A DNA stretch of 24,898 nucleotides from a virus (taxonomy: Duplodnaviria; Heunggongvirae; Uroviricota; Caudoviricetes). The position numbers were made by a program, and so were the translations under genes. The DNA is taken from IMG/VR virus record IMGVR_UViG_2718218305_000013. One strand, written 5' to 3'. Below, piece by piece: positions 8,956 to 10,208 of this stretch. The notes below the pieces were generated by a model. It was not told the DNA's origin. It saw only the letters and a program-made list of their open reading frames with translations, and searched no databases. Numbering within the stretch: position 1 is the stretch's first letter; every line of letters begins with the position of its first letter.

Positions 8956-9545
8956 TAAAAGATTGTCTTTATATTCATAAAGTGATTCAAGAGATGAATG
9001 TATTGTTTTATATTTTTATCTTCTAACGTCTTAAAATCACTTTTTTCTGATTGATAAATTTCATTAACATCATTTTTTCTTAACATAATTAATTCATGTT
9101 CGCGAACATTAGATCCGATTGATTCAATTAATCCTTTCAGCTGGCTTTTGATTTTCAATTTTTCTGCATTACACGACAAAAAACAATCATCATATGATAT
9201 TTCATTTTCTTTTTTTTGCGGTGTATTACAGAACTCACAATAAATATCTGCAAAATTATTTAAATAGAAATTCGCCTGTGATACAACATCTATTCTTTGT
9301 AGATCTATAAAGTATTGGTCTTTAAGAAGACTAAATCTTTCAATGAGTAATGATAAGTATTTTTCCCTGTCACTGATTGAATATAATTCATCACTTAACT
9401 CTTTTAATAATTGCTTCTTATCATCAAGTGCATCAACAATACCTTTCAATATATCTTTCGATGATTCAATATCTTGCTCTACTTTCTCAAGTTCTCTTGA
9501 AACAATGACTTGATCATATTCAGGATAAATTAATTGCGCTTTCAA
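8955..9545 (-). CDS. Cassette gene E: coiled-coil segment of the SMC-like ATPase; in frame with D across a single TAA
   Basis: Heptad-rich, charged sequence; the track start is TTG with no usable RBS; the D frame continues into E across one in-frame TAA at 9576-9578. Confidence 0.5.
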   Translation of the reverse strand: MKAQLIYPEYDQVIVSRELEKVEQDIESSKDILKGIVDALDDKKQLLKELSDELYSISDREKYLSLLIERFSLLKDQYFIDLQRIDVVSQANFYLNNFADIYCEFCNTPQKKENEISYDDCFLSCNAEKLKIKSQLKGLIESIGSNVREHELIMLRKNDVNEIYQSEKSDFKTLEDKNIKQYIHLLNHFMNIKTIF

Positions 9546-9575
9546 TTCCTCATAAATATTTGCAATTTGATTTTT

Positions 9576-10208
9576 TTAAAAATATCTTGCTTTTTTATTT
9601 GGTTTTTCTGCTAAGGAGTTAGTATCATCTCTCTGAGTTAAAAGGAATTTAAATTCAGACTTTCTTTTTGTCTCCTCGCTAGGAATATCAGAAAGAATTA
9701 ACGACTTCTCAGTTAACACTCTTAATTCATCAATACAAAAAAATTCAAAAACATTATTAAGATTAAATTTATGAAGAGTATTACTTAAGTTTGTTCTTAC
9801 TTTAGCCTCTTTGAAATTCAACCTACCATAAAAGTATGATGAAAAACTCTTTTTAGACGAAGCACTTTTGGAAAAAACCATCAACAGATTAGCTTCACTA
9901 ACATTTTCAATGCTCGAATCATATAATCTGTAATGGGCGCTATCCTGAAGAGACCTCTCAATTGTCATTACCCTACCTTGAAAATTAAATTCCAGATAGG
10001 CTAAATCATAACCTTGAGCATGATCGATATCTTTATTTTTTAGTTTTTCACTCCCTAATAAATATCGAATCAAATAATATATGTATGTTTTTCCAGAGTC
10101 AGAACCACCATATAAAATAGTCAATTTAGAACCAAATTCAATTATAGCATCTAATTTATTGAATCCGGTTACCTTTATTTTTCTGAACGTAAAAAAATTG
10201 TCATTCAT
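9576..10208 (-). CDS. Cassette gene D: N-terminal ABC/SMC-like ATPase head (Walker A), about 210 aa
   Basis: FTFRKIKVTGFNKLDAIIEFGSKLTILYGGSDSGKT is the canonical N-terminal strand plus P-loop of SMC/RecF/AAA_15-type ATPases; likely ATG at 10208, 2 nt after the C stop. Confidence 0.65.
   Translation of the reverse strand: MNDNFFTFRKIKVTGFNKLDAIIEFGSKLTILYGGSDSGKTYIYYLIRYLLGSEKLKNKDIDHAQGYDLAYLEFNFQGRVMTIERSLQDSAHYRLYDSSIENVSEANLLMVFSKSASSKKSFSSYFYGRLNFKEAKVRTNLSNTLHKFNLNNVFEFFCIDELRVLTEKSLILSDIPSEETKRKSEFKFLLTQRDDTNSLAEKPNKKARYF

Follow-up and report, generated by a model that had tools for sequence, protein, structure and literature searches.

The window analysed here is the whole 24,898-nucleotide stretch of a Caudoviricetes virus record (IMGVR_UViG_2718218305_000013), which carries on its minus strand a type II 'short' Lamassu (ABC-3C) cassette. 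The source element of this lmu cassette is prophage Sp2 (CP-933I), a P4-like satellite of Escherichia coli O157:H7. The genes stand in the order lmuA-lmuC-lmuB, and both lmuA (pieces A and B) and lmuB (pieces D, E and F) are divided over separate reading frames. The parts of the cassette, and the lesions that divide them, are the following.

11249-11665, minus strand: 5' fragment of lmuA (A), N-terminal effector domain, GTG start (PADLOC LmuA 2e-87 on the intact orthologue).
11252-11258, minus strand: A7 run with 1 nucleotide (nt) missing at lmuA codon 137, the A/B frameshift (alignment column 411).
10659-11276, minus strand: 3' fragment of lmuA (B), the CTD6 domain, through which LmuA is docked to LmuB/LmuC (Pfam CTD6 7.7e-30).
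10201-10659, minus strand: lmuC, ABC-3C middle component 2, apparently intact (Pfam MC2; PADLOC on the Proteus orthologue; PGAP).
9576-10208, minus strand: lmuB fragment D, N-terminal half of the ATPase head, codons 1-210 plus the stop (Pfam AAA_23 2.2e-07; PGAP 'AAA family ATPase').
9576-9578, minus strand: in-frame TAA, lmuB L211*, ancestral TTA, changed base 9577 (sequence; DNA alignment).
8955-9575, minus strand: lmuB fragment E, ten linker codons plus the coiled-coil arm (sequence, alignments and motif coordinates).
9013-9017, minus strand: A5 run with 1 nt missing at lmuB codon 398, the E/F frameshift (alignment gap column 2651/2652).
8389-8955, minus strand: lmuB fragment F, end of the descending coiled coil plus the C-terminal half of the head (Pfam DUF3732 5.3e-05; aligned with the intact protein P0001).

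The motifs of an SMC-type ATPase are distributed over the three lmuB fragments. Fragment D, whose ATG overlaps the lmuC stop (ATGAATGA), also matches Pfam SMC_N and contains the Walker A motif GGSDSGKT at 10086-10109. Fragment E contains a CxxC zinc hook (CEFC, 9228-9239), the two cysteines of which, C324 and C327, are invariant in an alignment of 28 homologues. Fragment F, which matches DUF3732 weakly, holds a signature-like FGKGTRA at 8698-8718 and the Walker B motif FVVLDS at 8611-8628, with D532 and S533 invariant in the same alignment. The ATG of F corresponds to the internal Met419 of intact LmuB and overlaps the TAA of E at 8955-8957 (TAATG).

D and E lie in one frame. Read from its ATG, D occupies 9576-10208, and E, read from its TTG, occupies 8955-9545, with a single stop between them. 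On the minus strand the frame encodes KARYF up to the stop (AAA GCA AGA TAT TTT TAA AAA AAT CAA ATT GCA AAT ATT TAT GAG GAA TTG AAA GCG) and then continues as KNQIANIYEE(L)KAQLIYPEY; the ten sense codons KNQIANIYEE lie at 9546-9575, and the TTG used as the start of E by both the open reading frame (ORF) lister and PGAP lies at 9543-9545. An earlier note, made from the letters of the window, had described this arrangement, and the minus-strand sequence bears it out. The same note stated that E has only a TTG start and no usable ribosome-binding site (RBS). This is essentially right as regards use, with the correction that a GAGGA is present upstream of the TTG; its spacer of 1 nt is too close for normal initiation. 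The context of the stop is a T5A7 homopolymer.

To place the junction among its relatives, we used the concatenated D, linker, E and F sequence as a query and obtained 26 single proteins of 594-612 amino acids (aa) at a query coverage of 97-100%, the best being those of Proteus mirabilis (606 aa, 85% identity) and Pantoea alhagi (606 aa, 73%). A split between head and coiled coil was found in none of these homologues, all of which are single chains of ~600 aa; the possibility, raised in the earlier note, that the two are naturally separate genes finds no example among them. In the 28-sequence alignment Leu211 is nearly invariant, the codon at the position of the stop is a sense codon in all 28, and in the full-length homologues it is TTA or CTG, which answers the note's proposal to look up this codon in intact relatives. 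Across the stop, homologues read KKARYF-L-KNQIVSIYEEL, KKARVF-L-KSQIANIYEGL and KKTKTF-L-KKQV..., and the ten codons that follow it are conserved (KNQIANIYEE here, KNQIVSIYEE in Proteus). In the DNA alignment, base 9577 is T in the intact loci and in the E. coli copies from O55:H7, 493/89 and LSU61. With homologues that are single ~606-aa polypeptides carrying Leu at the position of the stop, the view that D and E are one gene cut by a nonsense codon is supported.

Intact loci encode LmuA of 335 aa, LmuC of 152 aa and LmuB of 606 aa, and three of them lie in the same int...ogr/delta-psu P4-like context. The cassettes of Proteus mirabilis (P0001, locus L005) and of the Pantoea alhagi/Logan P4-like satellites (P0002, loci L006-L008) align with the window over the whole 3.28-kb cassette at nucleotide identities of 89% and 79%, and share its gene order and its overlapping start/stop junctions; L006-L008 also share its int...ogr/delta-psu satellite context. 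Their 335-, 152- and 606-aa ORFs are uninterrupted, whereas the window carries a frameshift at lmuA codon 137, L211* in lmuB and a frameshift at lmuB codon 398. LmuA is intact at 335 aa in L005, L007 and L008. Shorter LmuA calls of 145 aa (L004, 7113-7550) and 201 aa (L006, 6945-7550) were considered as decayed copies and rejected, as the 335-aa ORF is open in both; the gene callers had missed the true start, a GTG that follows AAGGAG, and the short calls are artefacts of this.

The cassette was identified as a type II short Lamassu by domain, profile and fold. The PADLOC and Foldseek tests were run on the intact orthologue, whose LmuB is 85% identical, and not on the broken gene of the window. 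PADLOC recognised the Proteus orthologues as LmuB (3.4e-117, full length), LmuA (2e-87, residues 3-332) and LmuC (3.3e-35), and Pfam MC2 (PF20288) matches the window ORF 10201-10674 at 6e-30. An AlphaFold2 model of the 85%-identical intact homologue (mean pLDDT 83.7) comprises an N-terminal head from residue 1 to ~200, ascending helices at 205-318, an apex at 319-338, a descending helix at 339-437 and a C-terminal head at 444-606. Its best Foldseek matches in the PDB are the LmuB chains of LmuACB, LmuAB and LmuABC complexes (9uxh_F at 1e-16, 9hqx_B, 9hqu, 9ux7 and 9nyg_B; E-values 1e-16 to 1e-12), followed in rank by Rad50, SMC, JetC and MukB. Sequence searches of the PDB with the intact LmuB and LmuA orthologues gave no match, and it was the fold search alone that placed LmuB; NCBIfam holds no model for any of LmuA, LmuB and LmuC.

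These properties agree with the published description of short LmuB as a protein of ~600 aa with Walker A Gx4GK[ST], Walker B hhhhD[Q/S/T/E] and 0-2 CxxC hooks (PMC12663957). The LmuB reconstructed here has ~600 aa, both Walker motifs, an antiparallel coiled coil with a CxxC hook, and the fold; LmuC lies between lmuA and lmuB, and LmuA ends in CTD6. The cassette thus shares with short Lamassu a ~600-aa LmuB, Walker A Gx4GKT, Walker B hhhhDS, the CxxC hook, an MC2-type LmuC and a CTD6-bearing LmuA, and departs from it in that the reading frames are interrupted by the three lesions and the two LmuA domains are parted by a frameshift. In the literature, type II Lamassu is equated with ABC-3C and with DdmABC of Vibrio cholerae, and both DdmABC and the Salmonella LmuACB have the three-gene architecture and order seen in the window. 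The solved LmuBs are, in contrast, only 11-14% identical in sequence to the LmuB described here, and DdmA carries a Cap4 nuclease, whereas the LmuA effector domain here is not Cap4 and is at best weakly Mrr-like. This domain is possibly an Mrr/PD-(D/E)xK nuclease: in a Pfam search at E<=10 the LmuA N-terminal domain matched Mrr_cat at E=0.2, below the cutoff, and a D...D-x-K-like pattern (GRDVVGY...YQCK) was picked out by eye only. In the same search the LmuA orthologue of L007 matched Dbr1_C, which we judged irrelevant. The 5' fragment of lmuA is preceded by a strong AAGGAG Shine-Dalgarno sequence ahead of its GTG start.

Nucleotide alignment of the window with the intact loci revealed exactly three disruptive differences. 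Besides the nonsense codon, these are two deletions of a single nucleotide in runs of A. The deletion at lmuA codon 137 parts the effector domain from CTD6, and the A/B frame break reported in the earlier note is accordingly real, being this 1-nt deletion. The deletion at lmuB codon 398 severs the C-terminal half of the head; because of it, E ends after ~20 out-of-frame codons, which lie below ~9013 and run on past the frameshift to the TAA. The earlier note had missed this 1-nt deletion and, with it, the separation of E from F (8389-8955), the C-terminal half of the ATPase. When all three lesions were reverted in silico, clean ORFs of 606 aa for LmuB and 335 aa for LmuA were obtained. The break points lie near domain boundaries, namely the head/coiled-coil junction, the lower part of the descending coiled coil and the linker between the N- and C-terminal domains of LmuA.

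This anatomy bears directly on the suggestion, also made in the earlier note, that the cassette is controlled by recoding. Programmed readthrough of the stop would yield full-length LmuB from D and E at a low, regulated level, in keeping with two adjacent ORFs in frame with one stop between them and with an E that lacks a well-spaced RBS; moreover, UAA followed by A is not the strongest terminator context in E. coli. The stop is, however, a derived single-nucleotide polymorphism (SNP) at a position that is Leu (TTA) in intact homologues as well as in the ancestral lineages of E. coli, and no conserved recoding site exists. A ribosome that passed it would meet the codon-398 frameshift 187 codons further on, in a frame that is broken downstream, and its product would lack Walker B; lmuA, too, carries a frameshift, and slippage on T5A7 cannot remove an in-frame stop. 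As for the suppressor tRNA that the note proposed to look for, ARAGORN finds no tRNA gene of any kind, a cognate one included, in the 24.9-kb window. We therefore consider recoding at this stop extremely unlikely.

The distribution of the lesions was then followed through sequenced genomes. A 3.4-kb query around the site matched 309 E. coli complete-genome records at an identity of at least 99%, the sampled ones being O157:H7 and O55:H7. When the intact cassette of 79% identity served as the query of a distant-mode search, only the same 308 O157/O55 genomes came back, and no intact or closer copy of the cassette was found in E. coli. The cassette is matched at about 310 places, of which one belongs to a record classed as a plasmid; a single genome accounts for two of these places. 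A 76-mer containing the TAA is identical in 295 E. coli complete-genome records, and the same 76-mer with TTA occurs in ten: seven O55:H7 genomes, FDAARGOS_946, the sorbitol-fermenting O157 strain 493/89 and the deer isolate LSU61. A 78-mer across the lmuA frameshift is identical in 308/308 E. coli records, and both the lmuA frameshift and the lmuB codon-398 frameshift are present in 5/5 aligned E. coli copies, O55:H7 included. The possibility that the TAA is a sequencing or assembly artefact was prompted by its T5A7 context, a homopolymer that is error-prone on some platforms; it has practically no chance of being correct, given that 295 complete genomes, assembled independently in many laboratories and on many platforms, share the identical 76-mer and that the change is a substitution, not an indel.

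Further damage differs from lineage to lineage. In 493/89, D and E form a single ORF of 417 aa, and the fragment sizes vary between lineages (417 + 188 aa in 493/89, 394 in RM12579, 390 in LSU61, and 159 + 173 + 188 in CB9615). The A6 run at 9041-9046 (lmuB codon ~388) is an indel hot spot: O55:H7 has lost one A at codon 388, LSU61 has gained one in the same run, and 21/308 records differ somewhere in the surrounding 81-mer, although some of these differences could be homopolymer sequencing errors. The genome NZRM4165 gives a 1-nt shorter match in this 81-mer. The O55:H7 strain CB9615 (L003) has kept Leu211 TTA, with an independent CAA to TAA change at codon 214, three codons downstream (equivalent to 9569 in the window), and has an additional T in a T-run at codon 155 (~9744). 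Three O157:H7 genomes (M1300706002, 6535NalR and 6535WT) carry the transposase of IS1203, an IS3-family insertion sequence (IS), within the cassette, and their match to 8300-11700 falls into two pieces. A Logan assembly (P0027) encodes a 344-aa protein in which LmuC (to ...SIIKN) is fused to E (QIANIYEEL...), which implies a ~670-nt deletion of D, from ~10240 to ~9570 in the window, between two AAAAAAT microhomologies. Among the E. coli copies, 11/13 substitutions in lmuB fall at codon positions 1 or 2. Judged from these sequences, lmuB bears no sign of purifying selection, and because of the repeated lineage-specific indels, nonsense changes, IS insertion and deletion, together with the bias towards codon positions 1 and 2, the pattern appears to be one of neutral decay, with relaxed selection on a dead gene.

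Variation in runs of A might also reflect phase variation, in which slipped-strand mispairing at the A7 of lmuA, the A5 and A6 of lmuB and the T5A7 at the stop would switch the system on and off. Both frameshifts do lie in A-runs, and the A6 run at 9041-9046 has changed by -1 and +1 between lineages, with 21/308 records varying in the 81-mer. Against this, the lmuA tract is identical in 308/308 records, no record has an in-frame A6 at codon 398, and the TAA is a substitution, which slippage cannot reverse; tracts of 5-7 nt are in any case short for efficient phase variation. Switching of this kind is exceedingly improbable.

A naturally split but functional Lamassu, in which D, E, F and the two halves of LmuA would reassemble non-covalently, would account for break points close to domain borders in the AlphaFold2 model, for the overlap between the ATG of F and the stop of E, and for the fact that PGAP calls the fragments as coding sequences (CDSs); the two halves of the Rad50 head, moreover, can be co-expressed in vitro. 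No homologue is built in this way, however, all being single ~600-aa chains. E has a mis-spaced Shine-Dalgarno sequence before its TTG and F has none, the fragment pattern varies between lineages and is thus not conserved, and further disruptive indels and an IS insertion have accumulated. We regard reassembly as very improbable, if slightly less so than recoding or phase variation.

With the gene identity, the three lesions, their lineage distribution and the single-polypeptide homologues in hand, we consider it close to certain that D, E and F are remnants of lmuB in a dead type II Lamassu and that the TAA is a secondary lesion with no regulatory role. According to the stepwise model of this lineage, O55:H7 is ancestral and LSU-61 is an intermediate that links O55:H7 with the sorbitol- and non-sorbitol-fermenting O157 branches (PMC3309690). 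A comparative paper on the transition from O55:H7 to O157:H7 makes no mention of the lmu locus. By parsimony, since the frameshifts are common to all aligned copies and the TAA is confined to derived lineages, the two frameshifts would be the older lesions, and the nonsense SNP would date from the branch that led to typical O157:H7. In the common ancestor of the O55:H7/O157:H7 element, 1 nt would have been lost from the A-run of lmuA codon 137 and another from that of lmuB codon 398. Leu211, at the head/coiled-coil junction, would have changed from TTA to TAA only later, through a T-to-A transversion in the lineage of typical non-sorbitol-fermenting O157:H7. As a secondary lesion in what was presumably already a pseudogene, the TAA would have no regulatory role.

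The predicted consequences follow from what is known of working systems. Intact LmuB is expected to act as the SMC/Rad50-like ATPase sensor of an anti-phage and anti-plasmid system. [quoted passage not shown] In the window, the N-terminal head, coiled coil and C-terminal head of LmuB would be made from separate reading frames, and the LmuA effector domain would be detached from its docking domain. Because the LmuB parts are separated and the effector is detached, neither sensing nor regulated release of the effector would be expected. The locus thus appears to be a pseudogenised member of type II Lamassu, and the earlier note's alternative of an inactivated cassette agrees with the frameshift at lmuA codon 137, L211* and the frameshift at lmuB codon 398.

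Several points weigh against this conclusion. The loss of function of the cassette is deduced from sequence. lmuC is intact in the window, individual fragments might formally still possess some residual activity, and in most genomes, EDL933 for example, the PGAP annotation still gives D, E and F a CDS each. A repaired 82-mer with A6 at lmuB codon 398 was found in 0/308 records, a count that would miss a repaired genome bearing a further SNP in the 82-mer. Finally, a defence pseudogene is atypical of its setting: P4 hotspots carry diverse defence systems, and a 2026 survey of them found recognisable defence pseudogenes to be rare, at <1% of P4 pseudogenes (PMC13586616). The decayed system described here, in contrast to the general picture from that survey, is kept across the whole O55:H7/O157:H7 lineage.

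Within Sp2, the cassette fills the variable cargo slot, which is bounded by the ogr/delta-like gene and the integrase and corresponds to that of the P4-like satellite defence hotspot (psu/sid/delta - cargo - int). The gene that bounds it on one side is as follows.

11669-12850, minus strand: P4-type tyrosine integrase of Sp2, flanking the defence hotspot (Pfam Arm-DNA-bind_3, Phage_int_M and Phage_integrase; annotated intS).

In the RefSeq Sakai record the cassette lies inside the feature 'prophage Sp2, P4-like phage', flanked at one end by an ogr/delta-type activator together with psu and sid, and at the opposite end by the integrase intS. This feature holds a primase, a polarity suppression protein, a capsid size determination protein, a transcription activator and intS, and the PGAP annotation is equivalent. 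The P4 core genes around the cargo slot are apparently intact by the Sakai annotation, PGAP and the Pfam integrase domains, as expected of a P4-like satellite. Beyond Sp2 the Sakai record shows a lambda-like Sp1 remnant, and in both the window and Sakai this remnant follows Sp2 directly, as tandem elements. The Sp1 replication genes O and P carry pseudogene annotations (ECs_0277 and ECs_0279; ~19028-20258 in the window, minus strand), and the O gene appears in the window as a pair of ORFs that overlap (19336-19848 and 19650-20258). Around ~13340-13810 there is a partial ISEc48. In 493/89 (L010) a tRNA-Thr gene (6974-7049) is found just past the Sp2 integrase, for comparison with the window from ~13030 onward.

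Lamassu is a well-known type of system, and the locus is already a pseudogene in RefSeq, where Sakai ECs_0293 ('AAA family ATPase') spans D, E and F. The present analysis adds two small points: a precise account of the three lesions and of their history in the lineages, and the persistence of a decayed defence system in a P4-satellite hotspot. Both have limited practical weight and touch no open mechanistic question. It is unlikely, though less so than any of the alternatives weighed above, that the loss of Lamassu in the O55:H7/O157:H7 ancestor was selected or permissive and not mere neutral decay, or, in a weaker variant, that lmuC or a freed fragment took on a new role. This idea arises because a cell is aborted when its Lamassu system senses that lambdoid phages or plasmids are replicating; were it true, the loss could relieve autoimmunity against the neighbouring lambda-like Sp1, and could ease the later build-up of Shiga toxin (Stx) and other lambdoid prophages, and of pO157.

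For annotation, the three CDSs listed in most O157:H7 PGAP annotations as 'hypothetical protein' or 'AAA family ATPase' and the two LmuA pieces are best taken as two pseudogenes of one Lamassu. Within the sampled complete genomes, the L211* SNP at 9577 is a lineage marker by which typical non-sorbitol-fermenting O157:H7 can be told apart from O55:H7, sorbitol-fermenting O157:H- and LSU61. In censuses of defence systems, matches to the intact lmuC and to CTD6 give no ground for counting O157:H7 as Lamassu-positive.

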